From Cyanidioschyzon merolae (lineage: Eukaryota), in NCBI GenBank assembly GCA_000091205.1, contig AP006501.2: DNA of 64,000 nt. One strand, 5' to 3'. Positions 1,017 to 48,190 of this stretch are shown piece by piece. The notes beneath the pieces are model-generated. The model was not told the origin of the DNA. It was given only the letters and a program-made list of their open reading frames with translations, and did not search any database. Each line of letters opens with the position of its first letter. The stretch's first letter is position 1. Both the position numbers and the translations under genes were made by a program.

Positions 1017-1661
1017 TTGCCTGAAGGATATCTACACATCTTTACTGAACAATGCAAAGAGGGCTGCATTCCTCCTTCGGATTCGTCACACCACAGTACT
1101 CTGATGGTTGACGAGCACAGAAAGAAACAAGTAGATGCGCTGCATGCCAAAACCCGGTATTCACAAAGACTGTTTGCGGTCAATGGGAGACAACGACCTG
1201 TTGTTCACCTTACGGGAGATGAAAGCGACAATAGTAGCCACCATGGGCGTCTCTGTTTCTCGACAGCTCATTCGTATGGTCTCGAAAACACTGGGATACA
1301 ATCGCAAAAAAAGAGTCCTTGTTCAACCACGGCCATTTTCCACCGAAATCGCAACCACAACAAAGATCCTGAAAAGTCACTACCGGTATGAAGCAGAGGG
1401 ACGTGGGTTTGTTTTTTTTCCAGTCGGTGAAACTTCCTTCGGACGAAACGATCGGTGCGTATATGGGTATTCAGGGGCGATGGGCGCCCGGTCTACGTAC
1501 GATCGAAGTCGAAGAGAACGAGGATAACATCGTCTGCTCTAGCTGCAATGGATTCATTTGGTGGCCACAGTTTCGTTCGCAGAGAAGCCACATACCATAG
1601 CACCCTTTTCGTCGATTCATTGAAGACTGTTCTTCGACGCCTCACGGGGTCCTTCTATTAA
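1017..1661 (+). pseudogene. Tc1/mariner-like DDE transposase, N-terminal part only (HTH plus start of catalytic core), frameshifted
   Basis: ORFs 1017-1391, 1135-1527 and 1455-1661 in three frames align to Tc1 transposase. The HTH block SVS..R.L.......GY.RKK..L.....P matches Tc1 LSVSCRTVRRRLLEVGLRGCVSRKKPL. FVFFPVGETSFGRNDRCVYGY corresponds to Tc1 VVFSDESKFELFGSDGRQYVRR. ITSSALAAMDSFGGHSFV corresponds to Tc1 TVKFGGGSVMVWG. Frameshifts occur between blocks and the first catalytic Asp context is degenerate. Confidence 0.5.
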
Positions 1662-2032
1662 GCAACCTAGTGTTTGACCATTCCAGTGGCGTTCCAGCTT
1701 TTGCGGATTCTATCTGGTAATATAGCTGCTTTTCATTTCTCCGCACACTCTGTGGTTCATGCCCATCGAAGCACCGTAAGCTGTCTTATAACGTAATGAT
1801 CGCTCCACTGGGCGAATCACTGATGCGTTTAGTACACGGTAACACTCCGAGGCACGTGCTGTCTTTGTTTCGCAAACCCTTCTCCTTCCGGGAAGGTCCT
1901 CGTCCAAGGGCATAGAGAACTGCGTTTATTTCGAAGAAATAAGAAACCTGAGGGGCGAGCTGAGGTGTGCGCACTTTACCAGGTCGCGTTTGAGAAACCC
2001 CAGCGCAGCGCTTTGGCGATAGAAACGCACGC

Positions 2033-2230
2033 GGAGCTGGCGGAGCACCAAATGGCACAGAGGGCACGCGTTCGAGGACTCCCTGCATTGGTGACTTCAA
2101 CCAGTGGTAATACATGGAAGGAGTTCTTGAACTGAGACTTCAACGCTGCAATTAATAGCAGAAGATATGCGATACTGAAGATGAAACCCACGGAGCTGAC
2201 GTGATCCAGCTTTGTGGAGCAGCATCTCAA
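2033..2230 (+). pseudogene. Fanzor/TnpB C-terminal (RuvC-III) fragment with an in-frame stop
   Basis: The plus-strand frame reads LPALVTSTSGNTWKEFLN*DFNAAINSRRYAILKMKPTELT. This aligns with the element-B ORF GLLALVSTTPNGKKLMEFMNRDFNAAINIRKYALMEKRPPELT. The Arg codon of the RD motif has become TGA. Confidence 0.5.
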
Positions 2231-2367
2231 GGTCGAATTGCATCAGGAGAAGTTGATGCCAGTGGTAGGTGGCCAGTCAAAAAACGCTGGGAGGCGTCTA
2301 TGAGAAGGTGGATATATGTACCCTACATGGTGGTGGGGCATTATTTGTTTCACTGACTGTAGCGTAT

Positions 2368-3117
2368 TGGTCACTTTTCACTGTCATGAACGACAGGAAC
2401 TTTTGCGTGCCTCTTCTGTGACTGCTTCCTTTTCCTCGATCCCCGATCTGTGGATTTCAATACGCAGGTCTCGCTTGTCGATCCAGCTCCGCTATCAAAG
2501 AATTTGACGCCCAGAGTGAAGCTCCCGTCTATGCTTCGCTTGGCATTGTCGATCTCTGTGTATACAGCGTCGGTGCGACCCTCGAAGCGCTTGCTCGTCC
2601 GTATGGTCAAGTGTTCCCAGGGGTGTCCAGTGCACCTCCTCCTCCTCAGAGCGCCGTCCTGCCGAACGTTAACGCTTGCTATGTCGCTCGGTACATGCCC
2701 CTGACTGATACGGAACGCTGCCATCGGCGCCCGCACTCCGCTCCCGAGTCCGATGCCGTACCCTACGACCACGAGCTTGTTCTGGGCAACGCTCTCGGCG
2801 AGTGCGCTACCCGACGCACACGAGAGCGCTCACTGTCCCATTCAAAAACGTGTTTGTGGGAAGCGGTGTCGCTCATGGTGAATAAGCACCGAGCGGGAAA
2901 TCCAGGATACGGAACAAGTCGAGCGATATCGATCCGTCTCTGCGCTCTTCGAATAATACCTTGTCGCGTTTTTTTGCACTGGAAGCGAATGCTGCGATGG
3001 CTCAAGCCCAAGTCCGAGACCTTTCCTATGGAGAGAAAAGAGGCAGGGAGCGTCGAAGAGCGTGTCCTCTGACAGGTATGATGCTGCTCGGGATTGTCGA
3101 TTTATCGATTGCTACAA
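2368..3117. repeat. Direct repeat, copy 1 of 2 (about 750 bp, near-identical to 5587-6336)
   Basis: A sequence beginning ggtcacttttcactgtcatgaacgaca and ending gattgctacaaag recurs 3219 bp downstream. The embedded ORFs (2371-2772 minus, 2611-3072 plus) differ from their counterparts by only a few residues, implying about 97-98% nucleotide identity. No protein domain was recognised. Confidence 0.85.
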
Positions 3118-3703
3118 AGAAGGGCGGATTTTTCAACTAGAAGGATATCCATCGTCTGACGAAACAAGTTCTGTAAACTTTCTGAACGAGCTTGTGAACA
3201 AATCGTTGAAGACGCCGTGGAGGTGTTTCCTCGACAATCCAGCAGCGCGCATAGCAGCGCGCGCGAGTTGCCTTGAAACAGAAAGATCGATGACTTGGAG
3301 AATATTTAATTGCTTCAATTTACACATCATGAATGGAGAAGACTATAGTCTTCTCCATATGCATTGCATCGCGATATCACATAAATGACAAAATTTTGTC
3401 CGAGAACGTCGCATATTGCCTTTTATTCCGATGACGTGACAAACTCCAACGACGAAGAGGCCAATGATCTACATCGAAAAGACGACCGAGAATTCCAAAT
3501 TTTCGTGCGAATCGGTAAATACCCTATTCCTACACATCGAACGTTGAGGATGTGCATCCAAAACAAGTTCGGAAAGAAACCTCAAGGCGGGAGCGAACCA
3601 TGGAGTTCAGGGCTCCACGTTCATCCAACAGAGATGCAGGCTGGGAAGCGGTTGCACCAGGTCGTCTGCAGAGCCTGCCCCATGCTCTCTTCAAATCGAA
3701 TGT

Positions 3704-5586: not shown

Positions 5587-6336
5587 GGGTCACTTTTCAC
5601 TGTCATGAACGACACGAACTTTTGCGTGCCTCTTCTGTGACTGCTTCCTTTTCCTCGATCCCCGATCTGTGGATTTCAATACGCAGGTCTCGCTTGTCGA
5701 TCCAGCTCCGCTGTCAAAGAATTTGACGCCCAGAGTGAAGCTCCCGTCTATGCTTCGCTTGGCATTGTCGATCTCTGTGTATACAGCGTCGGTGCGACCC
5801 TCGAAGCGCTTGCTCGTCCGTATGGTCAAGTGTTCCCAGGGGTGTCCAGTGCACCTCCTCCTCCTCAGAGCGCCGTCCTGCCGAACGTGAACGCTTGCTA
5901 TGTCGCTCGGTACATGCCCCTGACTGATACGGAACGCTGCCATCGGCGCCCGCACTCCGCTCCCGAGTCCGATGCCGTACCCTACGACCACGAGCTTGTT
6001 CTGGGCAACGCTCTCGGCGAGTGCGCTACCCGATGCACACGAGCGCGCTCACTGTCCCATTCAAAAACGTGTTCGTGGGAAGCGGTGTCGCTCATGGTGC
6101 ATAAGCACCGAGCGGGAAATCCAGGATACGGAACAAGTCGAGCGATATCGATCCGTCTCTGCGCTCTTCGAATAATACCTTGTCGCGTTTTTTTGCACTG
6201 GAAGCGAATGCTGCGATGGCTCAAGCCCAAGTCCGAGACCTTTCCTATGGAGAGAAAAGAGGCAGGGAGCGTCGAAGAGCGTGTCCTCTGACAGGTATGA
6301 TGCTGCTCGGGATTGTCGATTTGTCGATTGCTACAA
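5587..6336. repeat. Direct repeat, copy 2 of 2 (near-identical to 2368-3117)
   Basis: Same sequence as 2368-3117 with a few substitutions, for example ORF 5830-6291 against ORF 2611-3072. It is in direct orientation and lies on the other flank of the DAP3-like gene. Confidence 0.85.
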
Positions 6337-6984
6337 AGCGAAGAGTCATCGACTTTTCGGAAAACATCGGTTAATTGGCCTGATAGATTCACAGATCTTT
6401 CATCATGATCACTGAGACGAGACTCCAAGGGATAGGTCGATGTTTGTCCTCGTCAATGTCGCAGCGCGAATTGTTGCTCCCGCAAGCTGCCCTGAGACAG
6501 AGGGATAAAAAACTACATGTACGCATGATTTCAGCATGCTACAAGTAATAAAAGGAGCATAAATGAGACTTGTTCATAGCAACTGACGAAACATATCTGC
6601 TACTTACATAAACCTCGTTCAAGATCAGCGCGAGTCACCGCAATGCTCGTGATGCTACGAAATCCAGCGGCAACGCGTCGAATGAGTCACGCTGAAAAGA
6701 CAACTGCGAATCCTAAATCTACGTAAACATCTGTCATTTCGATGCTGTACACATAGAAAAAAACCCGGAAAACCTTCGTACAGGAGCAGAGTAAGCATTT
6801 CCGCGTTCTATATGCATCCGTAACCAGTGTCGCACGCCCATCGCTCGTGCAAACATCGTGCCACAGTAGACCGCAGACACAGATGCTCCAGGTTGAAGAC
6901 GCTCACCTACACTACATGCAGTGCTTCATATTACCAGATCCATAAAATATTTAGGGAAGGGCTCGGATACCTCACCGCAGGTTC

Positions 6985-9900
6985 ATGAACCTGCGTAGAG
7001 CTCATAGAGAGCGCATGGCAAGGGGCATCGATCCCGTGGACGCTGGCGTCCGCTGCGGATGTCCTGCACGTGAGGCACCGGCAACGCGTTCCGTGCTGAA
7101 GCGCCAGCACAAACGTCCGTTGACGCTGAGCTGTATCATGTTCTCGGGACGGAGAGAGCGTGACCCAGCAGAACCCAGAGATCAGCTTCAAGGAGATAGC
7201 TATTATACAGAAGCCGGTAGCACGGAGCAGAACCCGCTTGTCGACCTGGACCTTGTGCGCAGTCGCCGTTTGGCGCGGTTTACCACCAAGTCGACGGCAG
7301 CGGACTCGTCGGGTGCTGTCGCTGAAACTTCTGCAACTGCTGGGCAGCACTCGAGCCGACCGGCTTGTGAGCGACCAGAGAATAAAACTGGGACTGAAGA
7401 GCGAGTCTTGCATCGGGCGGAAAGTGAAAAAGCACCGAGTGTGGAAGCGTGCCCGGCACCACAACGAAAAGCAGCCCCGGCTGTTTCTGAAAAGGAACTC
7501 GTGCACCAGAGCCTCTTGCGCATTTTGAATCTCTCGAGTGCGGAACTAGAAGAAATCTGGGCGAGAGCTGGTGTCGCTGCGTCGCAAGCGCCGACGCACC
7601 TAACCGTTGCTGAACTCGATACGGTGCTGGCGGAACGACTCCAGGATCCTCGCATCGTAGATGCGCTCTCCTACTTGATACTTTGCTACCAACGACTCCG
7701 TCAGGAGCTGGCCTCAATCCAAGCGGCTCGTTCACAGGTGTTGCGTGAGAGCCTGGGCAATGCGCTACCGCTTGTTGTGACCTATGCGCGAACATGTCTC
7801 TGGGAGCCGCACCTCTTCGTCTCAGGTCGTCGTTGGCCAGCGGAGAGCGCTCCACACGAGGCTGCCGCATTATGGCTCGTGGAGCAGTTTCAAAAACAGC
7901 AGATACCAGCAGAGGGCGATGCAGCAATCCTGCCACCAGCCATGTACGCGGACCTGGTGCACTGGTGGGCTCGCGACGCACCCGACGAACTCGAGCAACT
8001 GTTTCCAGTATTCTTTCGTGGCCTGGTGGAAAGCGCTCGTGCGGAACTGGATCAGATTTTTCTGCAGAGGTCACAGCTGTCATGTTTACGAGCTTTGGGA
8101 AGCGCGCTAGAGCCGCATGAGGCCTTGAACGCATTCGTGTCGATGGCGGATTTCGTTGCAGTGGATACCCGAAACAACGTCCGGTCGCTTCTTGGGCCAT
8201 TCCTGACACCAACAGCTCTACACTATGAGGACGATCGCGTTTCAAGGGCGCTCTTGCCGAACAACGTATCAACCGAAAGCGAGACCGCTGAGCGGGACGC
8301 GATCTCGGCTGTGCAGTGGTCTCTGGACACGCTACGCGACGGCTTGTACCGGCTCTTGATGCGACTTTTGCGCGCTGGACCGTATCCTCGTGAGCGAGTT
8401 CTCACCTGGCTGGCGAACCAGCTTAACCAGAATCGGGAAAGGATGAAACTGCAGGCCGCAACCGCAGAAACATGCACGGACGGGTACATGCTGAACCTTA
8501 CGGATGTCCTGCTGCGCCTTGCAGCGCCTTTTGCTGACCCGCGCTCCCCCAAACTGCAGTCCATTCCAATCAAATGTCTATACGATCATCATCGAATCCG
8601 CTTGGCGGAGCAGGAGACGCGCGTCGGATGCGATTATGCGGAAGCGCAGCGTCTACAAGCCGACTATTTGCAGCAGCAGCAGCAGCAGCAGGCCGGGAAT
8701 CCCTACGCATTCATTCCCGAATGTTTTTTCCTGACGACGCGTGCACTTCAGCTCACATATCTGCCATTTTTGCAGTATTATCGAGAGGAAATCTTGCATC
8801 AACTGCAGCGGCTTGAAGAGATGCGCGAGGAACTGAATCTCGCGCAACAGCAACAGCAGCAGCAACCGGTATCTTCGATGCAGCAACTGGAACAACAGCT
8901 GATGCGAAGCCAGTGTGAGCGAGCCATCGCCGGTCTCCGACGTGATCGCCAATCCTGCCTCTTCTATTTGTTCGATAGCGGCTCACTGGATCGTCTTTTG
9001 CAATTTTTAGCTGCGCTGGCGGCATACATCATGCAAATAGCAGGTTTTGCCGGACGCTTACCGCTGCCTGCTCAGGATGCGGCTTCTGTACCCCGGGAGT
9101 ACGCCTTGTTACCCGAGTCAATTTTTGAGCTGCTGGCTGAGGTGCTCCAATCGATCGTACAGCTGCGCTTGCCCGTGCCGCTGACCACGGTGGGCGCCCT
9201 CTTTCCCCAGTTTGTAGAGTTCGCTACCATGCTGCTTTCGAATACGTTCTACTTGCGGAACATACATATCCGCGCACGCTACGCTGAATGGCTCGCACAA
9301 ATGTTCCCGGCGATAGGGAACGAGCTGCGCCATGCGCTCGGAGCAGTGCATCTACCGCCCGAATTCGAGGCCGCTTTTCTCGGCAATGAACAGGTCGTTG
9401 AGAATCTGCCACCAGCTCTGATGCAGCTCTATATCGATGTGGAGCGTACTGGAACGCATACACAGTTCTTCGACAAGTTCTCGATGCGATTCTACATGAG
9501 TGAGGTACTGGTGGCCATGTGGCGGGTCCCGGCGTATGCGCGTGTGCTCCGACGCCTCGCCTCGACGCGAGAGGGACTTTTCGTACATTTCAGCAATATG
9601 CTCTTTAATGATGCCAATTTCTTGCTTGATGAGTCGTTGCAAGCCCTGGCAGAAATCCACGAACTCGAGCGGCTTCTAGAGCCGAATTCGATACAGGGTC
9701 AGGCTCTGGAGCCGCAGGCTCGCGAAGAGAAACGCAAGCGCCTGCTTCAGTTGCAGCGTCAGGCCAAGTCGTTCAACCAGCTTGCCAACAGCAGTATTCG
9801 CTTGATGGTGACGCTAACCGAGGAGGTGCGGCAGCCGTTTTTGCGACCGGAACTGCTGGATCGTCTAACGAACATGCTGAACTATTTCTTGGTGGCACTT

Positions 9901-10458
9901 TGCGGGCCGCGTTGCGAGAACCTCGTTGTTCAGGAGCGTCATCGGTACGAATGGGAACCGCGCCAGCTATTATCCCAGATCCTGCGGATTTATCTGTCGA
10001 TGCACGATCCGCTTCGGGATCGTGACGGCACCAGACGCTTCTGTTGCTCAATAGCAGCTGACGGGCGCTCGTATCGACCGGAGGTTTTCGAGCGGGCGGC
10101 GCAGATAGCTGCAACGCGGGGCCTCTTGACGCCTGCCGAGTGCCAACGATTTCACGAACTCGTCGAGTCCGTGGCGATCTGTGCTAAGGAGCTTGTTGCC
10201 GAGGATGAGGAGCTCAGCGAAGCACCCGACGAATTCCTAGATCCGATTCTGGCAACCCTGATGCAGGATCCCGTCATGTTGCCATCGAGTCGCAAAATCG
10301 TGGATCGCTCGACCATCGTGCGACATTTGTTGAGCGATCCGCACGATCCATTCAACAGACAACCGCTGAGAATAGAGGACGTGATCCCGCAACCAGCGCT
10401 CAAAGAACAGATTACGAGCTGGCTACAAGAGAGACAGGGAACGCGGCGTGTCTCGTGA
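6985..10458 (+). CDS. UFD2: Ubiquitin conjugation factor E4 (Ufd2-type, C-terminal U-box)
   Basis: The 1157-aa ORF ends with a U-box: [65 protein letters not shown] long helical Ufd2-core-like region lies upstream, with poly-Q tracts encoded by CAG runs at 8671-8691 and about 8846-8866. The exact start Met is uncertain; alternative Mets lie at codons 11 and 52. Confidence 0.85.
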
Positions 10459-10464
10459 GCGGGT

Positions 10465-10466
<2 letters not shown>

Positions 10467-10492
<26 letters not shown>
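10467..10492. repeat. (CTG)n trinucleotide microsatellite just 3' of the Ufd2 stop
   Basis: gctgctgctgctgctgctgctgctgct read directly from the sequence. Confidence 0.9.
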
Positions 10493-10495
<3 letters not shown>

Positions 10496-10989
10496 TATAT
10501 CGGCGAGCGCGCGTACTGGACGAGATATCTGGTTTCGGGGAGCTCGCTGCCACTGCGATACACTAAGCTGATCCGACCTGCGTAAACTGACCGAGAAAAT
10601 GGAGCAACGGCACACCATGATCGTCGACAAATGGACCGGACAGATCGTCTCCGGTGTTGATACACGGCGCTCTCGTGAATCTGGATTCCTGACCTGGACC
10701 GCACGAGTGCGCTGTTCCAGGCGGGATTCCCATGCCCTCTCACCTGGCTACTGTTTTTTCTCATCGCAAGTCTTCGGCGTTTCCGTACAGTGCCCAAACG
10801 GAGTACGAAACGATGACCACGAAACTTTGCTCGATACAAAGCCAGTCGTCGCTCCAAAAGCACACGGCGATGCCGGGTATTGATCCAAGCGTCCAAGTCC
10901 GGATGCGGAAGGAGCTCGTGTGTATTGCTGCAGGTGGAATCTCGATATTGCAAGCATCTCACCTGTTATTGCCTCGCGGTGTGAGGTTC

Positions 10990-13745
10990 GCTCAGCTTAG
11001 CATACACCATGCGGTGCATCGTTTGGTTTCACGCGATGCCTCGCTTCCAGCCTCAGCGCGCAACGCTCCTCGAGATGTGTGTACGTCATCCTAAACGCAT
11101 CGATGGGAATCGAATACCATCGATGCCTGTTCTCGTTGCACACTCTAGGCGAAGGAGCTGGTGTGTTAACTTTTTTTGGGAACCGTGCGCCCTGCTCCGT
11201 ACGCTACTACGAGCCTCTGACTCTGGTCCTCCGTGAGGGCGCTCATCTGATTAAAAAAGTTGGCGAATGCAAGCCGTTTCCCTTTGCACAAGTTCAGTCG
11301 CTGACGAGCCCACCTGGGCTTTGTATACTCTTTCCGTAGCGCCTCGTCATGAGCAGCTTGAGTTCCCGTGGATTCCCGAAAAGCTTCAAAGGCCGCTTTG
11401 CGGCCCGTCAGTTTGTTCATCGCTTCCAGATGCTTCTTCATTCCTGAATTCCACGTCTCACTCTGTTTCCTTGCATTCATTATACCCGATTCTTGGTGAT
11501 ACCTCGCTCTTGAGAACTTTCAAAGACGCATGCCTTTCTGAAGTAAGTTGCCGTCGATACCATCTTTCGCACACTTGCGTGCAGCAATGGTTACGATCTT
11601 CGTGTTCTCGGGGCGAAGAGCAACGACAAATTCGTTCTCCTACGGGTTATACGTTCCAGGATCTGCCTCCTTTTTTTCTTCATGTTCCGCCAAGGGCGAC
11701 AACAAAGACGCATTAGGTCGATCCACCTTCAAGCGCCTGTAGTGAATGCATGTGGACACTCCATCGATATCGAACATCCCCGTGAATACCTTTTGCTTGC
11801 TGATTTTGAGACGTTTGAAATTGAAGATGTTCTTCCAGTACGTCTCCCGGTTTTCGCCGGTGAAGTCCTCCCTGCTAACATAGAACTCGGGACAGATCTG
11901 CTTCATGATTCCATGAAGGATTCTGGAGTCGATACTCACAAAATGTGACCTGATGTTGCACAACAGAACGATGTTGAAGCGCTTCCCCGTTAGGAAAGCC
12001 TTCCGTCTCTCCCACTCTTCATTTTTTCTCGACACGCCTCCTTTTCGGCCTTGCGTTCGAGTTCTCGATTCAAAAACACGAAATAGCGTAGCACGAGGTG
12101 ATAGCATCTTTCTTCATCTTTTATCATATCTGATCCCTGTTCTGTTGGGTTGACAAGCCCCGAGACCGCACGGTGCTCTTGAAAAGCCGCACGGATCACA
12201 GAAGCTTCATTCTTTCTCCTGGCTGATGCCTTCTTGTTGACGAATTCGATCTCCTGTTTATTCCTACAATTCTTCGTGATGCCGTTGATGATGGCCCATA
12301 TCGTTTTGCGAGAGAGGCCCGGGTAGAGTGCAAACACGGCGCGTATCACGAAACGTTCGATATTCACGATCATATGGTTCCTCGGGCTCGTGGGGTATCT
12401 CATCGCCCCGTATTCGGAAATACGCGAGTCACCCCTGTATCCAGTACCGTCGAAGCGGTATTTGGCGTGATTTTCGTGGAGGGCATGCACTCGCTCATTT
12501 TTCGTCGACGCGTCCCCTGTGCCAACCATCAGGTGACGAATAAAGTTCATGTTGAGAAACTCTTCCGAAACCTCGACTGTTTTGATGTCCGTCACGTCGT
12601 GATACATCCCCTGCACCAAATGCATCAGCCCTGAAGAAGCCTCACGAACACTCATGGAGTACGAATCGACATGGTTTCTGATGGATTCTCGCAACGTTTC
12701 CTTCTACGAGTCCTTGATAGGTCCAAGAGGACAGGCTTTCACAACCATATCGTCGTGCTGTCGTCATTCTGGGAGCTTCTGACATTGGACCTCCCGATTT
12801 TGCCTCTTCCTTTTGTCTTGCACTTCTGCGCTTGGTACTTTTGTTCGTTTTTTCTTATGCGGCAGCTGGCGGCACCTGCCCTCCAGGATCCTTCATTTCC
12901 GTGTCCAGGACTTTCCTTTGCTATTTTTTTGAAAAAAAAACGCACATTGAACGCTTCTGTTATGAAACACGTAAAATCACTTGAATACACTAATGTGAAC
13001 GTTGAAAGACGATTGAATTGAAACACTATAATTTGCAATGACTTGAACGCAGATGCAACTTGTACGTCGAAGCGACAAGTCGACGAACGGTCAGGATCGC
13101 GTTACATTTCAACGGCGACATGCGTGTCGCGTCTCGTGAAGGCCTGATCTCCCAGGTGCGCATATCGAACCTACTATATAGAATAAAGAGCAGAGACTCT
13201 AGATTCACCCGCAAATATGAATAGCCATATTTCTTTCCCCTCTACGATACACGTTAAACGCGGGAAAAGTTTCTTTATTGCGGATAGTTTGCTTCATAGG
13301 CGATGGGTCCCGCGAACCGGACGAGTCTGTCGAGGATGTGCTTCATGCGACTCTGCAGTACCGAGCGCTGTAGTGAGACCCCAGCAGCTCGTCGGCAACG
13401 CAGTCTATTCTGGGACTAGGGCCAGTTAGGCTGCGTCTGTGCGTCACCCTGGTCGCGGTGGACTCCTAGTATATCGCTTCGCGCTGCCACAGGAAGTACG
13501 CCAGTCCGCGCGGGTTTCAGGCTCCTAGAATGATAATGTATACCGATTCCATGTTGAATGAACCACGCCTCGGGCCGATGCTCCCAGTTGTATGGCAAAG
13601 CCGTTGCGTCCCCGGGCAGCATCTGCTTCAGCGGTATGCAAGCGCTACAGTGGGTGCTCGAAGCAGGCACTCGGCGCACCAAAGAACATACGAAACAACC
13701 AGTATATCCGAGAGGAATTATCGGTAATGGAACTTGAAGGTATGG
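10990..13745 (-). mobile_element. Fanzor/TnpB-like transposon, degenerate copy A (about 2.7 kb)
   Basis: Nucleotide and protein homology to 38255-40795 runs along the full length. Shared landmarks include APCSVRYYEPLT, [28 protein letters not shown], KRLAFANFFNQMSALTEDQSQRLVVAYGAG, LPxAARSDxLGVHxDQGDA, and the terminal motif ACGAAACAACCAGTATATCCGAGAG. The 3' (RuvC-III) end is diverged or lost. Confidence 0.55.
11166..12694 (-). pseudogene. Fanzor/TnpB-like nuclease pseudogene (copy A), with in-frame stops and a lost RuvC-I Asp
   Basis: Minus-strand ORFs 11990-12694 (234 aa, starts with Met), 11640-12107 and 11166-11480 together form one gene. Hand translation of the minus strand across 11560 gives [56 protein letters not shown]. 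This is the RuvC-I position but reads ALRPEN where copy B reads GADPGN, and it contains a TGA stop. The N-terminal 200 aa are about 50% identical to copy B. Confidence 0.5.
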
Positions 13746-14311
13746 TGCGGAATGATGGACACAATCTCGATTACCAATGTCCGTCGTGCAATCTGGGATT
13801 CACGGACAATGGAAACCTCATCGAAAAATTCACCAGTGAGATCAACACTCGGGCGATCGTGCGCGCCATTGCCAGTGGCGGACACCGGATCGCACATGCG
13901 CAAACAGATACCCATATACTTATGGAGGATCGTAACTTGCTCAATTTCTATCCAGGTACTTATATATACATAAATATATAATATGGCACACCATTGGAAA
14001 TCGAATCGAAAGCGGGAACGGCCGCGGGATCCATGCGCCGATGCGCCAGGCGTACGGGCGCACGACCCGCAAGGACATCGATGCATGCGCATCGCGCGAC
14101 CGTGATGCCGCGTTTGCCGCTTCCCAGATGCGCCGTCTGCGGAATCTTTCCCTGCACAGATGCGCTCGTGTACGCCGATGATGCACCTCCACCGTGATCC
14201 AAAAACATGTGATATGCAACGTTTTTTTTCGTTGTTGTTCTGCGAACGATACGTTCACTCCTATTCGAAGAAAAAGTCACTTGAATCAATCGATCTGAAA
14301 GCGATTCAACA

Positions 14312-16168
14312 ATGTCCAGGGAAGAGCGCGATGGATCAGCGGGTTTCGTGGAGCATGCTGCGACAGCAGCGCGTTCCCCTGACCCACCGTACGTCGGCAG
14401 AGAGCCGCTGCCCAGTGCTGCAGAACGAACCAATGCGGACGGTGCGTGCGATGAATTCGTACTTCCGATATCTCCAGAGGTGCCTGGTGGCGACCCCGAG
14501 CAGCCGACGACTGGCTTGACACCGTCGGAGCCTAGTGCGTCGCTCTCGGAGAAGCGGGAACCCTCGGCGGACTTTGGCCCTCGAAAGGGTGAGTCGCGTC
14601 GGGACTATTTGCGGCGCGAGTTCCAACAGCTTCGCTCCTACATCGTCGTCACATCGGCATATCTCCTATTTTCCCTGACCGATGGGGGCATTCGAATGAT
14701 CGTGCTGCTGTACTCGATTTTCCTGGGATTCTCCGCATTCGCAACAGCGCTCATGTTCTCGGCATACGAACTTGCTGGGGTGTCGACGAATATCATTGCC
14801 GGCATGATCGGGTCGGCTTGGGGAATTCGAGCCCCGCTACTGATTGGACTCGGGTTCCAGCTCCTCGGACTGGTCATGCTTTTCGTGTGGCAGGCAGACA
14901 ACCAGCATCTGCTTGGGGTGCGAGGCGCGGTCTACGTTGCGGCCGCTCAGGTGCTGAGCGGTGCCGCCAAGGACATGGTGAAACTCTCCGGCAAGTCCAT
15001 ATCTCGGCTCGTGACCCCGGAATCGAAACAAACGCGCCTCTTTCGTCTGGTAGGGTTCATCACTGGCTTTAAGAATACGTTCAAAGGCCTCGGGTACATC
15101 ATGGGTGCATCGATCGTGTTTGTTTCCTACTATGCCGCACTTGGTGTGATGGTCGGGATCGTTCTCATCGTCGCTGTGATCGTTTGGTTCGGGCTGGACT
15201 GGGAGACTGGGCGTATACCGCACGACTATGTCTCGCTGAGGCGCATGCTCACTGTGAATCACAACGTTGGTTTTCTCTGTCTCGCGCGGATATTTCTCTT
15301 CGGTGTACGTGATCTGTGGCTCGAAGTTCCGATACTGTACTTCCTCCAGAACCAAAAGTATGGGTTCTCCTGGCCGGACTATGCCGTGGGTCTGTTTGTT
15401 GGCCTCTACACGGTACAGTACGGTCAGATACAGAGCTGGGCGCCGCAGTACTTGCTTCGGCCGCTCGGACAGATGCCGTCCAATCGTTATACGCTTCTGT
15501 TCTGGAACATACTTCTTTTGCCGGTGGTTGTCTTTATGGCTGCCTTTATTCAATGGTCCCCGACATTTGCCAATCATGATGTGAATGGCATGATTGGGTT
15601 CGTGATTGTGACGGTGTTCGCGTTCTCGTTCGTTTTCGCCGTGAATTCGTCAGCGCATAGTTACATGATCGTCAAGTACACGTCCGGCGACAAGGTCGCC
15701 ATGACAGTAGGTTTTTACTACATGACCAACGCTATTGGCCGCTTCATTGGTACCTTTTTCGGTGGACTGCTCTATACCTACGTCAGTTCCGACAAAGTCG
15801 AAAGTCTGGCTGCATGTTTCTGGACATCGGTCGGATTCATTCTGGCAGCTGAGGTCTTTACCTATTTCCTTCATGATAATGTTGGCGGATTCCGATGCGG
15901 CCCCTGTTTCGCGTACGCCGTGGATGCAGAAGACTCGGAGGTCAGTCGGAGCAAGGTTGATCTCATCGAGGGCAAACCCGCATCATCATTCTTGGATTCA
16001 GATACTCACATGAACAACAAGCTCGAGAAAGCCGAGCTCAGTCCAGCATATCAGGGCAACCAGTTCGCCGGCGTGCCGCGCACAGCGTACAGCACTGGCA
16101 GCGAAGAGACGCAAGCTGAAATACCAGGATCCCAGATCCGGAACGAACGTGACCGAAATGAGCGCTAG
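14312..16168 (+). CDS. Polytopic membrane protein, major-facilitator-superfamily-like transporter (tentative)
   Basis: The 618-aa ORF has about 12 hydrophobic segments after a roughly 110-aa low-complexity N-terminus. NIIAGMIGSAWGIRAPLLIGLGFQ resembles the MFS loop 2-3 motif G-x-L-a-D-r-x-G-r-r. It is the longest ORF here; the antisense ORF 14837-15577 is rejected. Confidence 0.5.
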   Translation: MSREERDGSAGFVEHAATAARSPDPPYVGREPLPSAAERTNADGACDEFVLPISPEVPGGDPEQPTTGLTPSEPSASLSEKREPSADFGPRKGESRRDYLRREFQQLRSYIVVTSAYLLFSLTDGGIRMIVLLYSIFLGFSAFATALMFSAYELAGVSTNIIAGMIGSAWGIRAPLLIGLGFQLLGLVMLFVWQADNQHLLGVRGAVYVAAAQVLSGAAKDMVKLSGKSISRLVTPESKQTRLFRLVGFITGFKNTFKGLGYIMGASIVFVSYYAALGVMVGIVLIVAVIVWFGLDWETGRIPHDYVSLRRMLTVNHNVGFLCLARIFLFGVRDLWLEVPILYFLQNQKYGFSWPDYAVGLFVGLYTVQYGQIQSWAPQYLLRPLGQMPSNRYTLLFWNILLLPVVVFMAAFIQWSPTFANHDVNGMIGFVIVTVFAFSFVFAVNSSAHSYMIVKYTSGDKVAMTVGFYYMTNAIGRFIGTFFGGLLYTYVSSDKVESLAACFWTSVGFILAAEVFTYFLHDNVGGFRCGPCFAYAVDAEDSEVSRSKVDLIEGKPASSFLDSDTHMNNKLEKAELSPAYQGNQFAGVPRTAYSTGSEETQAEIPGSQIRNERDRNER

Positions 16169-17947: not shown

Positions 17948-18256
17948 TTAGTGTCCATTCGCAGATATCTTGCAGCTTTTTGCTGGCCGGCCATCAGCAA
18001 CCGGTTTCAGTGTAGCCAGACATGCTTCGAGCCTGAGAGGCTGCCCCATAAAGTTAGATAGCCTCAGCTCCGCGGGTCTCGTCCTGGGCACCGCGCATCC
18101 CCTGATATCGATGGTGGCAAGGAAGTCACGGTTCACGAACTCCATGCAGGCACTGCCGCTGGTTGAACGCACCTCTGCAAGGAGTCCCCGAACTCGTATC
18201 TTCTGTGCCACTACAATCTCGTCATCGTGCTGTCGGGCAAACACATTTTTTGTCAT
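17948..18256 (-). pseudogene. Fanzor/TnpB C-terminal (RuvC-III region) fragment, copy 2
   Basis: DEIVVAQKIRVRGLLAEVRSTSGSACMEFVNRDFLATIDIRGCAVPRTRPAELRLSNF aligns with copy B KVRGLLALVSTTPNGKKLMEFMNRDFNAAINIRKYALMEKRPPELTRELF. The NAAxNI core is mutated. Confidence 0.5.
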
Positions 18257-18508
18257 CTATAGCTTCTCTTCTTTTCCTGTTTTGCTGCTTGCGCCTCTTC
18301 GCTCAATGGTTGGCGAGAAGGGAATTTTTATTGGCTTTTTTTTGTCGAACCCGGCGATGACGGCCCTCCAGGATCCTCGACTTGCATGTCCATACCTCTC
18401 ACATGGATTTGTTATCTTTGATAATGAACGCAATTCTTTGTGCCCTTAGGTGAGAACCTTCTCTGAGGGTGAAGGACCTGCGGTGGAAAGTCGACATTTA
18501 CCCTGGTG

Positions 18509-19246
18509 TCACTGTGTGCTGAACGCTTCAGCGATTCGCCAAACGGTGCGGTCATTACGTTTCAGGATGGAAAACACTCCTTCGACAGGGATGAACTTTC
18601 GTGAGCACGGAGATATGATAAACAGATCTGTCACGATAGAATCGCCAAGAGCTCGAACGCAAAGGTAAGAGCAATCGTTCCGTTGTTCAATAGAAGGACG
18701 GCGCCGGACGTCAGCGAAAAGTCTTCGATGATTCGACAAAGTGGCTGGTGCTGTTTTACGAGCCCCCTCTGCACGAACGAACCTGTGGCCGCGAACTGAA
18801 TCCACTGCAGCTAGAACAGATGATGATATCCTCATTCTCGTTCAGTTCGATAGCACATACAACGGGCTCTCTCTAAGTACATACCCATGGACGCCCCCAC
18901 CGTTTCGTCCGAAACAAGTCTTATTGACCGAAAGAACGGACCGACGTTCCTGTACTTTATATCGATCGCTGGGTTTCAGGAATACTGCAGTAGCTGCACT
19001 TTCGGAGGACGAAGGCCGTGCGTGAACTCGGGCTCTTCTTTGGCAACAGTATCCCAGTGTTTTCAGGATCACCGGAACAAGCTGTTGAGGAACAGAGACC
19101 CCTGTGGCACCTACTGTATTTGCTTTTGCATCCCTTAAGGCGGCAAACGGGTCGTATGCTATCATGTACCTCAACCATTCTTCGAGAACATCAGTTTTTA
19201 TTATGGAGCGCATCTCCTTCTGTCTATCCCAGTGTTCCTCAACCAT
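18509..19246 (-). pseudogene. Tc1/mariner-like transposase N-terminal remnant (copy 2), frameshifted
   Basis: ATGVSVPQQLVPVILKTLGYCCQRRARVHARP aligns with the Tc1 HTH region. RSVLSVNKTCFGRNGGGVHGYVLRES aligns with Tc1 VVFSDESKFELFGSDGRQYVRRP, where the catalytic Asp has become Asn. SSVLAAVDSVRGHRFV aligns with Tc1 KFGGGSVMVWG in a different frame. Confidence 0.45.
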
Positions 19247-19574
19247 CTGAATACTGTTGTCTGACTGGCCTGAGGGAAAAGGGCAGTCCTCCTTTACTAT
19301 CTCGTTGCGAATATATATCCTACAGAAAATTCATTTACGATCTGTTCGGTACATTGCGTCGCGGTGTCGATCCCATGCCATACACTGCGAAAAAGCATCC
19401 GATGACACACAGCGGACATGGAACCGAATTCAGCTTGGAAGACAATACATCGATCAGGTGTCGCTCGTTTCAGCTGTGAACCGTGCGCGTCAACGGCGCT
19501 CTTGTTCGAGCAACAGCATACGTAGGAGCGAGCCTTGGACAAGGCTTCAGCGTTTCGGCTCGTTTTCACAGTAC

Positions 19575-36657: not shown

Positions 36658-37983
36658 TCATTTGTTCCGATTCTTCTTCGGTGCCGAGTCTGTATTGGGC
36701 GCTGCAGACGCATTCGAAGTTTCGTTCTGCGTTTCTGTGATGACGCGCGTGTAGCAGCTCGTGTATGAAACCGCCCCAAAGCCTTCTGAATCATCAATAA
36801 TCTCGGCTTCCTGGAAACGACTTTCATCGAAATTCAGACGCTGCAGAAGCTCTTGCATGCGCGGAGAAAGGGTCTGCGGCTCGCTCGAGTAGCGCGGGAT
36901 CTGGTTTCCTCGATACCGGTGTCGATACGCTCCTCGACTCGTCATTCTCGACGTGTTAGCGAGCTTTTTCAGCTCCTGAGGCGCCATCGACTGGTCTGGC
37001 GTGCGTCGGCCAACCGCACTCCGGGAACCGGGGCCAGAGCTGGACGCGTCTGGACGTTTGTCGGCAGTTGGCTTCGCTCCTGGAACGGAACCTCTGCGGC
37101 TGCCGGCGGTTGCGTCGCGCCCCAGACCGGGAGCCGACGCAGACGATTCTCGTCGAGCGGTTTCGAGCCCGTTGCTTGGTGCGATGCTACTCGGGTGCGG
37201 GTCGCTGGGCGGCGGCCCCGTGCCTTGACTCCAGTGACCCTGCGGATGACGCCCCTGAGTATCAGATGAACGCCGTTGCGTTGGTGCTGGCGCGGGTTCA
37301 TGCGGCAACGGCACCGCTGGTGATGTAGGTTTCGATTCTGGAGGCGTCTTGAGCGCAGCTCTTGTGCGCGGTTTTCTTTTCTCCGACTTTGATGTGGTGG
37401 ACGACTCCGAAGGCAGTGGAGTCACAGAAGCGGAGGGGCGTTCAGGAACACGCGGGTGCTTCAAGTCGCGCGTTGACTTTGGGTCCCTCTGTTTCGGGCG
37501 CGGACGGAATGCGCGCCGCCGCTCTGGCGGCCCAATGTCGGCGTCCTCCGCGTGATCCTCCTCGAAGTCTAAGCGCATCCAACAGGGCGAAATCGCTGTC
37601 CTTTGTGCACAGTGGTGTCGCCATCGCCGCGTACGACACGTACCGGAGCAGTTAAAAGCAGAGCAGCGGCTCTCGTTGCGAAGTGCGCCGAACACCGAGA
37701 CAAAAGCGCAGTCGCGATGCGCGCCCATGGTAGACGCTCCCTGATCCACTTGGAAGCAATGGAAAAGCACCATCGACGACAAAGCGTGCGCGTGCGGCAC
37801 AGACGGGTTGGTAAAATACGTCCTCAATGAACAACGACGGGTTGAACAAACGCACCCCACTGTCGACAACCGGTCGTCAGTGCGTCTCGACGGGTCCGTC
37901 TGGGAACCGCCCTTGCGCCAAAAACTGGGTACGGCCGACCTTGAATCCGATGAGAAGCCCCGTTGCCTGTGTGTGCGCTTCAC
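36658..37983 (-). CDS. Hypothetical Pro/Ser/Arg-rich low-complexity protein; coding status uncertain
   Basis: The 441-aa ORF lies in a very GC-rich interval where both strands carry long ORFs (36232-36768 plus, 36276-36827 minus). No domain was recognised. It is reported only because it is the longest ORF in a 2.8-kb interval that otherwise has no gene. Confidence 0.2.
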   Translation of the reverse strand: MKRTHRQRGFSSDSRSAVPSFWRKGGSQTDPSRRTDDRLSTVGCVCSTRRCSLRTYFTNPSVPHAHALSSMVLFHCFQVDQGASTMGAHRDCAFVSVFGALRNESRCSAFNCSGTCRTRRWRHHCAQRTAISPCWMRLDFEEDHAEDADIGPPERRRAFRPRPKQRDPKSTRDLKHPRVPERPSASVTPLPSESSTTSKSEKRKPRTRAALKTPPESKPTSPAVPLPHEPAPAPTQRRSSDTQGRHPQGHWSQGTGPPPSDPHPSSIAPSNGLETARRESSASAPGLGRDATAGSRRGSVPGAKPTADKRPDASSSGPGSRSAVGRRTPDQSMAPQELKKLANTSRMTSRGAYRHRYRGNQIPRYSSEPQTLSPRMQELLQRLNFDESRFQEAEIIDDSEGFGAVSYTSCYTRVITETQNETSNASAAPNTDSAPKKNRNK

Positions 37984-38254: not shown

Positions 38255-40322
38255 CTAGAGGAAACGTCTCCAATTGACGTGCAGACGCCTTCCAGCTTTT
38301 TTCCACTGGCCACCCACTACGGCTTCCAACTTTATCTCATATAATTCCACATTCAGAGATTGTTCAATAAAGAGTTCTCTTGTCAACTCTGGGGGTCTCT
38401 TCTCCATCAACGCATATTTCCTTATATTGATGGCAGCATTAAAGTCTCGATTCATAAACTCCATCAGTTTCTTGCCGTTGGGAGTTGTACTCACTAATGC
38501 AAGTAGTCCACGAACTTTCGCGCTCCTTTCCATTTGCTCTTCCGTCAGCGTACCGTACTTTCTTATAACCTCAGGACTCCTCTGGCACTTTTCCATCTCG
38601 ACCCTCTGAAGTGTACACCCCAGTTCATGGTGTGTATAGGACGTTCGAAACTCATCTACAGGTATCGTGCCGATACGCCGTGCACACTCTTTGTACGTTC
38701 TTGTCGTTGGAGCTGGCGAAGTTCCTTGCTTGGGTCTTCCGTCGCCCTGCTCCGTACGCTACTACGAGCCTCTGACTTTCATCCTCCTTCAAGGCGCTCA
38801 GCTGATTGAAAAAGTTCGCGAATGCACGCTGCTTCCCACAATACAAATTCATTCGCAGTCGAACCCGCCGGGGCTTGGTCTACTCCTCCTACAGCGCATC
38901 CCAATGAGCAACACGAACTTCCATGAATTTCCGTAGAGCCTGAAAGTCCGCTCCTCGGCTTGTCACCTCGCTCAAAGCTTCCAGGTGCTCTTTCATTCCT
39001 GCATTTCACTTCTCAATTTTCTTCCTCGCATTCATTATACCGGATTCTCGATAGAATCTCGCTCTCGAGAACCCCAAAAGACGCATGTCTTTCTGACGTA
39101 AGTTAGCATCAGTACCATCTTCCGCACGCTAGGGTACTGCGATGGTTATGTTATTTGTGTTTCCGGGATCCGCGCCAACGACAAAGTCGTTATCTTGCAC
39201 CTCCTGCGTCGCAGGATCCGCCTCCTTCTCATCTTCATGCATCGTCGCGCCAACGACAAGGTCGTTATCTTGCACCTCCTGCGTCCCAGGATCCGCCTTC
39301 TGCTCATCTGCATCCTTCGTCACGGGCGCAGCCGAGGGAGGGACTGGGCGATCTGTCTTCAACCGCCGATAGTGTATACACAAGGCTACTCCATCGGTTT
39401 CGATCATCTCAGTGAATACCTTTTGTTTGCTGACTTTGAGACGTTTGAAATCGAAGATACTCTTCCAGTACGTCTCACGGTTTTCACCGGAGAATTTCTT
39501 CCTGCTAACATCGGACTCAGGACTGATCTCGCTCATGATGCTGCAAAGACGCCAGAGTGGATAGTCACAAAATGTGACTTGATATTGTACATTGGAACAA
39601 CGTTGAAGCGCTTCCCCATTAGGAACGCCTTCCGTCTCTCCCACTCTTCATTTTTTCCTCATTCAGCCTCATCTCTGCCGTGCGTTCGAGTTCGCGGTCC
39701 AAAAACACGAAATACCTCAAGATGAGGAGGTAGTATCTTTCCTTATCTTTTCCAACTCTGATATCTTGTCTGCTGGATTAACCAGCCCCAAGACTGCACG
39801 GTGTTCCTGTATAACCGCACGGATTAGAGAAGCTTCATTCGTGCACTCATTCGACGCCTTCTTGTCAACGAACTCGATCTCATCTTCATGATGGCGATCG
39901 TTCGTGATGCAACTGATAATTGCCCATTTTCCTGCGCGAGACAGACCCAGGTAGAGTGCAACCACGGTGCGTATCATGAAACGTTCGAAGTTCGCTGTCA
40001 AATGGTTCTTCAGATTCGCGAGGTACTTCATCGCCCCATAGCTGTAAATATCCCAGTCACCCTTGTACCGAGTACCCTCGAACCCGTCAAAGGGATGTTT
40101 TTCGTGGAGAGCATGCACTAGCACATTTTCCCTCCGCGCTTTCTCTGTACCAAGCATCAGGTGACGAATAAAGGTCTTGTCGAAGAACTCGCCGGGAATC
40201 TCGACCGTTTCCATGTGCGTCCCGTCGCGATACATCTCTCTCACCAAATGCATCAGTCTTGACAACGCGTTGACAATACTCTTGGAGTACGACGCAAAAC
40301 GTTTTTCGATAGCGTCTCGCAA
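38255..40322 (-). pseudogene. Fanzor/TnpB-like RuvC-fold nuclease gene (about 640 codons) disrupted by in-frame stop codons
   Basis: Minus-strand ORFs 39717-40322 (201 aa, starts with Met), 39129-39644, 38779-39009, 38652-38852 and 38255-38596 are collinear pieces of one gene. Hand translation keeps a single frame from RuvC-I through HDTCR but passes TAG, TGA, TAG and TAG stops; the first three are AVP*, IEK* and DAL*. One frame change occurs before the RuvC-III exon-like piece. About 257 aa separate RuvC-I from RuvC-III, which is appropriate for Fanzor. A possible degenerate Cys-pair segment (VCTAYRHDTC ... GCTLQRVEMEKC) precedes RuvC-III. Confidence 0.55.
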
Positions 40323-40795
40323 CTTTTGTTTATGGGGATCCTTGATATATCCAAAAGGGTCCGCCAGGCTCGCGCTTCATGCTCCCGCCAGTACTTACTG
40401 CTGTAGCGATATCTAAGCGACTCGTCGAGAAACGCTGGTCATTCTGGGCTCGGGGCGGGTAGCCTGCGTCAGGGGCGTCGCCCTGGTCGCAGTGGACTCC
40501 TAGCGTATCGCTTCGCGCTGCTGCAGGCAGTAGGTCTAACTGCACATCTCCCAGGCTTCCAGAATGTTGACGAATCCCGATTCCGTATTCAATGAAGCAT
40601 TCCTCGATCCGATACCCCCATGGATATGGCAAAACCGTTCTGTCTCCATTCAGCATCCGCACTAGCAGCATCGGCTCTATTGCGGATGCAGCAATGCAGG
40701 TACTCAGCGCACGATGGAACATACGAAATTACCAGTATATCCGAGAACAGACCATGAAACTTGGCGTAAGAGCGAAGCATATTGAGCACTGGCAT
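38255..40795 (-). mobile_element. Fanzor/TnpB-like transposon, copy B (about 2.5 kb, better preserved)
   Basis: Homologous to copy A over its whole length. It carries a recognisable RuvC-I motif ([20 protein letters not shown] 39129-39644) and a RuvC-III motif (LMEFMNRDFNAAINIRKYAL, ORF 38255-38596) in the TnpB order. The 5' terminal motif is ACGAAATTACCAGTATATCCGAGAA at about 40725-40750. Confidence 0.6.
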
Positions 40796-48094: not shown

Positions 48095-48190
48095 TGGCGT
48101 CGATGGTGGCAGCGCACACCACGGCACGACGATAGGATGTACGAAACGACCAGAATATCCGAGAAGAAGTGCAGGTAATGTAACTTGGAG
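48095..48190 (-). mobile_element. Orphan fragment of the Fanzor-element 5' terminus
   Basis: The sequence acgaaacgaccagaatatccgagaagaagtgcaggtaatgtaacttggagg is about 80% identical to the terminus of copy A (acgaaacaaccagtatatccgagaggaattatcggtaatggaacttgaagg, about 13695-13745). It also matches the terminus of copy B at about 40725-40790. No adjacent Fanzor coding sequence is present. Confidence 0.4.

Follow-up and report, generated by a model that had tools for sequence, protein, structure and literature searches.

A probable dead and mosaic relic of a Fanzor1 transposon related to CMe-1A in Cyanidioschyzon merolae

Introduction

Fanzor1 elements have been described before in the genome of the red alga Cyanidioschyzon merolae. 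CMe-1A, one Fanzor1 family of this species, comprises about 150 copies that are ~80% identical to a consensus of ~3 kb (Bao and Jurka 2013, PMC3627910); it has no terminal inverted repeats and its target-site duplication is undetermined (Bao and Jurka 2013, Mobile DNA 4:12, PMC3627910). Its 5' 635 bp constitute the short element TE-N2_CMe, and the study that defined the Fanzor1 group counts it as a member (Bao and Jurka 2013, PMC3627910). Here, we analysed two Fanzor-like copies, termed copy A and copy B, within a C. merolae stretch of 64,000 nucleotides (contig AP006501.2), hereafter the window, in whose coordinates all positions are given. Copy A is, with a probability that we put at about 0.8, a real but dead Fanzor1 transposon relic related to the published CMe-1A family: full-length, completely inactivated, mosaic in structure and neutral since its insertion.

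The family to which these copies belong resembles CMe-1A in several respects: the same genome, a length of ~3 kb, no terminal inverted repeats, many old copies, a 5' module of ~600 bp shared with TE-N2_CMe, and a Fanzor1 protein. Copy B is a typical member of CMe-1A, and the 5' 2.65 kb of copy A are a diverged one (77% versus 84% pairwise identity); the last 570 bp of copy A, in contrast, are of an older lineage.

Beyond the alga, the closest described systems are SpuFz1 (PDB 8GKH) and the Fanzor1 of Parasitella parasitica (PDB 9CF0). The family profile matches the WED/RuvC/NUC half of these proteins, with which the ETDG, DPG, DE[FY][RK]TS and (N)RD motifs align, and by analogy the family may share the mechanism expected of SpuFz1, RNA-guided double-strand DNA cleavage by a single RuvC site. 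It differs from SpuFz1 in that the red-algal family is devoid of a CCCC zinc ribbon and carries a variable array of 25-amino-acid (aa) repeats before RuvC-I, and in that copy A is inactive. The likeness to TnpB in the OMEGA systems of IS200/IS605 elements lies in a nuclease gene on the 3' side of the element, a structured segment that runs from the stop codon to an exact boundary, and subterminal hairpins without inverted repeats. Unlike in these systems, no TnpA-like transposase was seen in the element, the host is eukaryotic and the RuvC-II glutamate is rearranged, as in other Fanzors. Finally, an analogy has been drawn (Bao and Jurka) to HAL1-like families, in which only a part of the coding capacity of the parent element is retained. 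The family studied here likewise kept a coding signature without a recognisable transposase, varying 1.5-1.75 times more at third codon positions than at the first two. This last likeness holds for the family, whereas copy A shows almost no such signature.

Results

A Fanzor1 family with many relatives

Using the stitched translation of copy B, 54 protein relatives were found, all in hot-spring metagenomes and up to 752 aa long. A scan of metagenome contigs yielded 395 loci related to the family, 80 of which were used for the locus comparisons below (L-numbers). The majority consensus of 33 full copies contains an intact open reading frame (ORF) of 789 aa; all identities to the consensus refer to this sequence and not to that of Repbase. 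The original prediction had argued for an old, multi-copy family with subfamilies, a view that the ~150 published CMe-1A copies (Bao and Jurka 2013) and the 395 metagenome relatives now support.

A profile of the close family alone matched none of the PDB sequences, and distant relatives had to be added. With three such relatives included, the profile retrieved SpuFz1 (E = 6.7e-15, profile positions 298-665) and Parasitella Fz1 (E = 3.2e-14), and the DPG, DE[FY][RK]TS and RD motifs aligned between the family and the Fanzor1 structures. All three motifs are present in the consensus and in copy B (GADPGN, VDEFRTS and NRDFNAAINI), aligned with those of SpuFz1. In domain searches, no Pfam domain scored above threshold on the ORF pieces, where only Cas12f1-like_TNB appeared below it (18.7 versus 26.3 bits on copy B). 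Rfam gave no match in the window and the phage collection gave none either.

Copy A has lost its reading frame and two catalytic residues

From 13832 down to 11180, copy A is 74-80% identical to 20-80 family copies, the 5' module included. Its 5' limit is at 13811-13832 and its 3' limit, set by the alignment with other Fanzor relics described below, at ~10600. The coordinates first assigned to it, 10990-13745, thus clip the element at both ends. The 5' non-coding module also exists on its own: solo copies of ~555-575 bp that match A 13816-13243 and lie apart from Fanzor ORFs were found at L055, L054, L025, L016 and L015. Within the window, a stray TE-N2_CMe-like piece of this module lies at 48118-48225 on the minus strand; it resembles A 13689-13742 (83% identity over 54 nt) as well as B 40711-40747.

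When copies A and B were searched by tblastn with the 789-aa consensus, the protein remnant of copy A was distributed over three frames (Table 1). The N-terminal remnant is interrupted by a TGA at 12766 and a TAG at 12706; the central remnant contains one copy of the 25-aa repeat, and a third frame matches the consensus from 11176 to 10943 with 32% identity. At the RuvC-I position, copy A reads TTT GTC GTT GCT CTT CGC CCC GAG AAC, in which the codon for the catalytic Asp has become CGC (Arg, 11613-11615), whereas copy B has kept FVVGADPGN (39185-39159). A TGA follows 82 nt downstream (11522) and a TAG just precedes the motif (11642), so the loss of the RuvC-I Asp with a stop soon after, as first noticed, is confirmed. 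The Glu of the DEFRTS motif is also replaced, by Ala (GCG, 11096-11098). This residue is the 'alternative' catalytic glutamate of Fanzors, and its mutation in ApmFNuc (E467A) abolishes cleavage (Jiang et al. 2023). The tentative RuvC-III remnant is colinear with the preceding profile match and correctly spaced after it.

In total, copy A carries five in-frame stops and two frameshifts, and neither an uninterrupted ORF nor the full set of three catalytic residues was found. Judged by its sequence, copy A, with two of its three catalytic residues gone, cannot be active. All together, the profile matches and the lesions bear out the initial diagnosis of a Fanzor-like pseudogene deprived of its RuvC-I Asp.

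Table 1. Features of copies A and B (window coordinates).
Feature	Start	End	Strand	Remarks
Copy A, whole element (~3.23 kb)	10600	13832	-	nhmmer with the family DNA profile: 13826-11621 and 11709-11060
5' non-coding module, counterpart of the short element TE-N2_CMe	13243	13832	-	A 13816-13243 matches solo copies
N-terminal (REC-like) coding remnant, first frame	12026	12856	-	Consensus residues 22-298, 59% identity (tblastn)
Central coding remnant, second frame	11172	12023	-	Consensus residues 300-633, 58% identity (tblastn)
RuvC-I position, FVVALRPEN for FVVGADPGN	11604	11630	-	Pairs with the SpuFz1 DP motif in the profile alignment
'Conserved block', encodes KFSRARYHQESGIMNARKQSETWNSGMK	11459	11566	-	Lowest family divergence, 0.074-0.083
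Junction and frameshift, main-family 5' part to lineage-2 3' module	11166	11180	-	Consensus residue ~632, between VVAYGAG and DEFRTS
3' module, lineage-2 type	10600	11166	-	Alternative-Glu remnant, RuvC-III remnant, 3' end
Alternative (rearranged) RuvC-II Glu motif, IPIDAFRMTY for IPVDEFRTSY	11081	11110	-	tblastn alignment
RuvC-III remnant (tentative), HPDLDAWINTR versus family NRDFNAAINVR	10873	10905	-	Profile match, 7.1 bits
Copy B, typical main-family CMe-1A relic	38191	40862	-	blastn, tblastn and family-copy matches
Family 3' end module in copy B: stop codon, GC hairpin 1, ACUACUGUACAC stretch, terminal hairpin	38191	38260	-	Covariance model, 32.5 bits, E = 2.9e-8

The 3' end of copy A belongs to a second Fanzor lineage

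Both nhmmer with the family DNA profile and tblastx place the end of main-family similarity in copy A at ~11045-11060. The claim that homology fades near 11000-11100 is therefore correct for the main family; it fails for Fanzor sequences as a whole, since similarity with a second lineage (lineage 2) continues to ~10600. At the junction between the two types, identity to the main consensus falls from ~0.8 to 0.58 and below, and the frame changes (11176/11172). Copy A from 11166 to 10600 is only 0.44 identical to the family consensus. With relaxed scoring, however, A 11166-10684 aligned to L027/L076, L075 and L062/L072 with 58-61.5% identity over ~480-490 nt (E 1e-17 to 7e-32). These are five relics from three independent sites, L076 and L072 being duplicates, and they are themselves Fanzor-like by protein profile (for example L075b, E = 1e-31).

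Several observations define the extent of this module. All lineage-2 alignments begin at A 11165-11166, the similarity among copy A and the three relics ends at ~A 10600, and a weak (7-bit) profile match, colinear and correctly spaced, passes through the RuvC-III position of copy A. Over the 3' segment, copy A is 0.55-0.59 identical to the three relics and the relics are 0.58-0.59 identical among themselves, whereas all four reach only 0.42-0.45 against the main consensus, which is the noise level (another figure for copy A is up to 0.485). Upstream of the junction the affinities are reversed, with identities of 0.75-0.76 between copy A and the main consensus and of 0.40-0.51 between copy A and lineage 2 (over the adjoining 530 nt, 0.75 and 0.40-0.49).

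A simpler account would be that copy A is a 3'-truncated or eroded relic, its Fanzor sequence ending at ~11050 and the 590 bp up to the UFD2 stop codon being unrelated spacer. Such an account would be in line with the point at which the main-family DNA profile stops (11045-11060), and also with two negative results: ordinary blastn finds nothing below 11183 in the window or the 80 loci, and the model of the main-family 3' hairpins has no match below 11183. Nevertheless, it leaves the alignment to five relics from three sites without explanation, as well as the Fanzor-like nature of these relics, the persistence of similarity to ~10600 and the colinear match through RuvC-III, and we consider it unlikely. 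The 3' end, described as eroded in the original prediction, is instead recognisable over its last 570 bp as a lineage-2 3' module, closer to the three relics (0.55-0.59) than to the main consensus (0.44).

Copy A is thus a mosaic, with 5' 2.65 kb of main CMe-1A type (~77-80% identical) followed by 570 bp of lineage 2. Transposons often nest or abut, and given how sharply the two parts differ in affinity, a 3'-truncated CMe-1A copy could also have come to lie next to a 5'-truncated lineage-2 relic through two independent insertions, without any recombinant. The junction is nevertheless in register, main-family homology ending where lineage 2 begins (~residue 632-660), and both types match in the overlap 11166-11050. 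We estimate at a few percent the chance that two truncations would meet within ~30 of 789 codons while also agreeing in strand and order, which makes abutting insertions improbable, even more so than simple erosion. For the mosaic, the in-register junction at ~residue 632 would most simply be produced by recombination or gene conversion between two Fanzor elements.

Lineage 2 itself appears to be a second, much older Fanzor lineage (~57% pairwise identity), with relics at L027 5050-5621, L075 8477-9420 and L062 8460-9021 that adjoin main-family copies in the metagenome contigs. At the position of the essential Glu of DEFRTS, the relics and copy A have Thr, Ala, Ser and Ala, which would fit a loss of this Glu already in the lineage-2 ancestor.

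Copy A is highly diverged and appears to evolve neutrally

Over 1500 well-aligned columns, copy A is 0.768 identical to the family copies (range 0.754-0.781), as compared to 0.833 for copy B and 0.839 for the family copies among themselves. The neighbour-joining tree is star-like and copy A, the most diverged copy examined, occupies its longest, basal branch. It had been proposed that copy A is older than copy B, and these values agree that it is older, or at least more diverged. Divergence from the consensus at first, second and third codon positions is 0.093/0.081/0.143 in the family and 0.116/0.086/0.175 in copy B. In copy A it is nearly flat (0.194/0.185/0.232), which implies mostly unconstrained decay.

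The insertion of copy A is present at the same site in four environmental strains, which are 99.1% identical to the window, and copy A is fixed in the population sampled. At ~99% identity, the orthologous loci of these four strains carry too little divergence for dating the insertion or for a proper measure of selection. Across the five genomes, copy A has 8.6 segregating sites per kb, flanking coding sequences 5.9-7.8 and other non-coding stretches 12-13. Within copy A, the segment 11640-12700 has 3 segregating sites in 1060 bp, and the rest ~8-14 per kb.

Could the host have co-opted copy A, in whole or in part, to serve as a regulatory or 3'-UTR (untranslated region) element of UFD2 or of the MFS gene, or for a protein from the 234-aa ORF at 11990-12694? 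The element is indeed retained in all five sampled genomes, and 3 sites per 1060 bp at 11640-12700 is low next to the ~12 per kb of other non-coding DNA. However, fixation carries little information in five genomes that are ~99% identical, 500-bp windows with 0-1 single-nucleotide polymorphisms also occur elsewhere, and the overall value of 8.6 per kb is unremarkable. The codon-position divergence is, moreover, nearly flat, no Pfam domain passes the threshold and the ORF pieces are not annotated proteins. Co-option is, all in all, very improbable, and since its insertion copy A would rather have undergone neutral drift, as intergenic DNA flanked by the UFD2 and MFS genes.

Copy B is a typical CMe-1A relic

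By blastn, copies A and B share three colinear blocks, on the same (minus) strand: A 13340-13713 / B 40374-40746 (72.4% over 377 nt), A 11621-12730 / B 39251-40358 (74.9% over 1114 nt) and A 11183-11684 / B 38739-39239 (75.0% over 503 nt). The longest N-terminal ORFs of the two copies are 53.6% identical over 192 aa. These values reproduce the ~50% aa identity in the N-terminal ORF and the 70-80% nucleotide identity in blocks that had been reported, and the blocks are not of low complexity and are far beyond chance. Of the 2.6 kb over which the copies were said to align, the homology itself holds for ~2 kb by blastn, while A 12731-13339 is unmatched in B. As 20-60 family copies match A 12731-13339, the ~600 bp that seemed extra in A are family sequence deleted from B rather than inserted into A. 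Reverse-complementing copy B before alignment, as had been advised, is needless as both copies are on the minus strand.

Copy B is 70-80% identical to the consensus by tblastn and frameshifted, with 8 stops in the alignment, several of which fall inside the frameshifted stretch. From 40358 to 38200 it is 82.5% identical to family copies. It has retained its Asp, Glu and Asp motifs (39159-39185, 38636-38665 and 38423-38452), falls inside the star phylogeny and has both the element homology and the 3' end module of CMe-1A. The internal deletion of ~600 bp (at ~40358/40374) removed the first ~65 codons and sequence upstream of them.

Directly upstream of RuvC-I, copy B has a 75-bp tandem duplication (39171-39321), and the same 75-bp (25-aa) unit is seen at A 11650-11700 and in proteins P0030, P0035 and P0037. 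Its copy number varies: copy A has a single unit, copy B two, the consensus three, P0030 four and P0037 five, and every unit ends in a RuvC-I-like DNDLVV(D/G)A. At the sequence level the array looks like a repeated duplication of the strand leading into the catalytic Asp.

The 'conserved block' is explained by its coding content

The blocks at A 11480-11560 and B 39040-39120 had been singled out as more similar than the flanking coding sequence. In 81-nt windows, A-B identity ranges from 0.64 to 0.89 and the block at A 11480-11560 scores 0.78, which by our own estimate is less than one binomial standard deviation above the mean of ~0.75 for windows of this size. Windows at ~11886-11780, ~12021 and ~11281 reach 0.86-0.89, so that the claim does not stand for the two copies. 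What the block encodes is RFSRARYYRESGIMNARKKIETWN, a peptide that varies less than any other in the family and aligns with the SpuFz1 protein. Its conservation would result from protein-level constraint in the ancestral master genes.

The same block had also been suspected to hold a structured RNA, and a functional one, for instance part of a guide RNA, would be an alternative reason for its conservation. Folding energies are suggestive at first sight: 120-nt windows over the block rank 1-4 of 57 in consensus folding energy across the ORF, and the block contains a 7-bp inverted repeat (GGUUCUC...GAGAAUC). Yet its structure conservation index is only 0.45-0.51, and compensatory base-pair changes are essentially absent from the block, with 1 sequence double-changed at 1 of 39 predicted pairs. 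Besides, the block encodes the least variable peptide, aligned with SpuFz1, its identity is exceeded elsewhere, and guide RNAs of Fanzor and TnpB come from the 3' end of the element, which is where the family has its conserved hairpins. An RNA function of the block is thus highly unlikely, and protein-level constraint is the explanation that we retain.

A 3' end module with two hairpins

The alignment of 61 family copies with copy B shows conservation for ~65 nt past the stop codon, followed by a collapse at B 38191, which defines the 3' boundary of the element. The module consists of a GC hairpin (GGCG..CGCC) with a variable inner stem, the near-invariant stretch ACUACUGUACAC and a terminal hairpin of 11-12 bp. 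The terminal hairpin comes in two sequence variants, GCGUCGUUCGA/UCGAACGGCGU and AAACGUUUUUC/GAAAGACGUUU, both of which pair. The folding z-score is -3.07 for a well-kept copy and 0.02 for the decayed copy of B. A hand-drawn structure of the main variant has 84% pairing but no covariation, which is expected of copies that decayed after insertion. RNAalifold recovered only 5 pairs from the MAFFT-aligned 3' ends since a 3-nt indel shifts the two hairpin variants relative to each other.

In the window, copy B gave the only significant match to the covariance model of the 3' end; none was found in or near copy A, from which the main-family hairpin module is absent. A marginal match lies at 37576-37637 on the minus strand, ~550 bp downstream of B and in the same orientation (13.3 bits, E = 0.029); it keeps ACCACUGUGCAC and is probably due to chance.

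Guide RNAs of Fanzor and TnpB map to the right end of the element (Jiang et al. 2023), and by analogy the 3' module is likely the end of a guide-RNA scaffold. Based on homology to SpuFz1 and ApmFNuc, the ancestral element would have encoded a TnpB-like, RNA-guided RuvC endonuclease of ~790 aa, and would have produced its guide RNA by transcription of the 3' end, as in the homologues.

The family has no C4 zinc ribbon

A C4 zinc finger (OrfB_Zn_ribbon/TNB) between RuvC-II and RuvC-III was called 'strictly conserved' (Bao and Jurka 2013, PMC3627910). It is absent from the family, whose consensus reads DEFRTSYTHHELGCTLQRVEMEKCQ...VRGLLALVSTT...NRD in this interval (also given as THHELGCTLQRVEMEKCQ...GLLALVSTT), with two Cys, two His and no second CxxC. 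All that remains in the corresponding region (consensus residues ~655-745, copy B 38423-38665) is HH..C plus a single other Cys. The zinc ribbon is likewise absent from the distant relative P0081, but present in P0082. The codon-position bias of the family suggests past purifying selection on a protein devoid of the ribbon.

Other features of the window

Two further Fanzor-related fragments, C (1056-2309, plus strand) and D (17950-19265, minus strand), are inverted relative to each other, ~16 kb apart and ~69-72% identical. In both, ~880 bp of common upstream sequence precede all that is left of the ORF, its RuvC-III/C-terminal part (profile positions 3305-3648 and 3415-3649), and on this arrangement they look like internally deleted derivatives. 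The 3' hairpin module was not found in or near either fragment with the covariance model. Fragment C starts at profile position 3305 and the main-family homology of copy A stops at 3316; fragment C was ruled out as the missing 3' part of copy A because the similarity between C and D extends over another 880 bp upstream of profile position 3305, in line with a separate kind of derivative.

Copy A fills most of a red-algal spacer of 3.85 kb. Upstream, UFD2/E4B (ubiquitin conjugation factor E4 B) occupies 6985-10458 on the plus strand, with its stop at 10458; downstream, an MFS-type transporter gene starts at 14312 (14312-16168, plus strand). Both proteins match C. merolae 10D proteins exactly, so the spacer lies between two ordinary red-algal genes. 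The chromosome that bears them in C. merolae 10D is 1,282,939 bp long. A (GCA/GCT)n trinucleotide run that immediately follows the stop codon of UFD2 (10464-10500) varies by a 6-bp indel between strains, and similar runs occur in several other places of the window and in the loci. A direct repeat of 751 bp (2369-3119 and 5588-6338, copies 99% identical) encloses a DAP3-like gene and is also present in related strains.

Discussion

The profile matches to Fanzor1 proteins, the membership in a published family and the accumulation of stops, frameshifts and catalytic substitutions all argue that copy A is a dead Fanzor1 relic. A number of points weigh against parts of this reading. The family is without the C4 zinc ribbon usual in Fanzor and TnpB, and we have therefore filed it as an atypical Fanzor1. 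The AlphaFold2 model of P0030, computed from a shallow alignment of 17 sequences, has a pLDDT (predicted local distance difference test) of 32.7 and a pTM (predicted template modelling score) of 0.19. The mosaic depends on three independent relics at 55-61% identity, near the ~0.42-0.47 noise floor of forced alignments, and the exchange may have gone either way, with copy A as the chimera or the main family as the recipient of a new 3' module. The RuvC-III remnant of copy A, with a score of only 7 bits, remains tentative, and the guide-RNA and nuclease mechanisms are transferred from homologues and thus only presumed for this family. Last, strictly neutral drift does not predict the few polymorphisms at 11640-12700, which could be due to chance, to a shallow local genealogy or to constraint.

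A more specific scenario can be proposed tentatively, and we hold it to be possible rather than probable. The whole 3' module, comprising the alternative-Glu motif, the TNB region, RuvC-III and the right end that would encode the guide RNA, would have been swapped in register between two Fanzor1 lineages; the red-algal Fanzor1 clade would have lost the zinc ribbon with its gene still under purifying selection; and the absence of the Glu from all four lineage-2 modules would fit the spread of a catalytically dead element mobilised in trans. If the 3' module swap is true, the C-terminus of the nuclease and the guide-RNA scaffold may evolve and be exchanged as one cassette.

The family of copy A has already been published, and in that sense the finding itself is already known. 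Copy A is an ordinary transposon fossil with no indication of function. Its region of the window is best masked as a CMe-1A/Fanzor1 relic rather than regarded as a gene, and beyond annotation it has little importance. The by-products on the family could be of wider use: an intact consensus ORF of 789 aa, the 3' boundary as defined here together with its two hairpins, a protein devoid of the zinc ribbon, the 25-aa repeat array of variable length before RuvC-I and a possible swap of the 3' module. These may be useful for reconstituting a thermo-acidophilic algal Fanzor for genome editing, or for studying how nucleases and their guide RNAs co-evolve.

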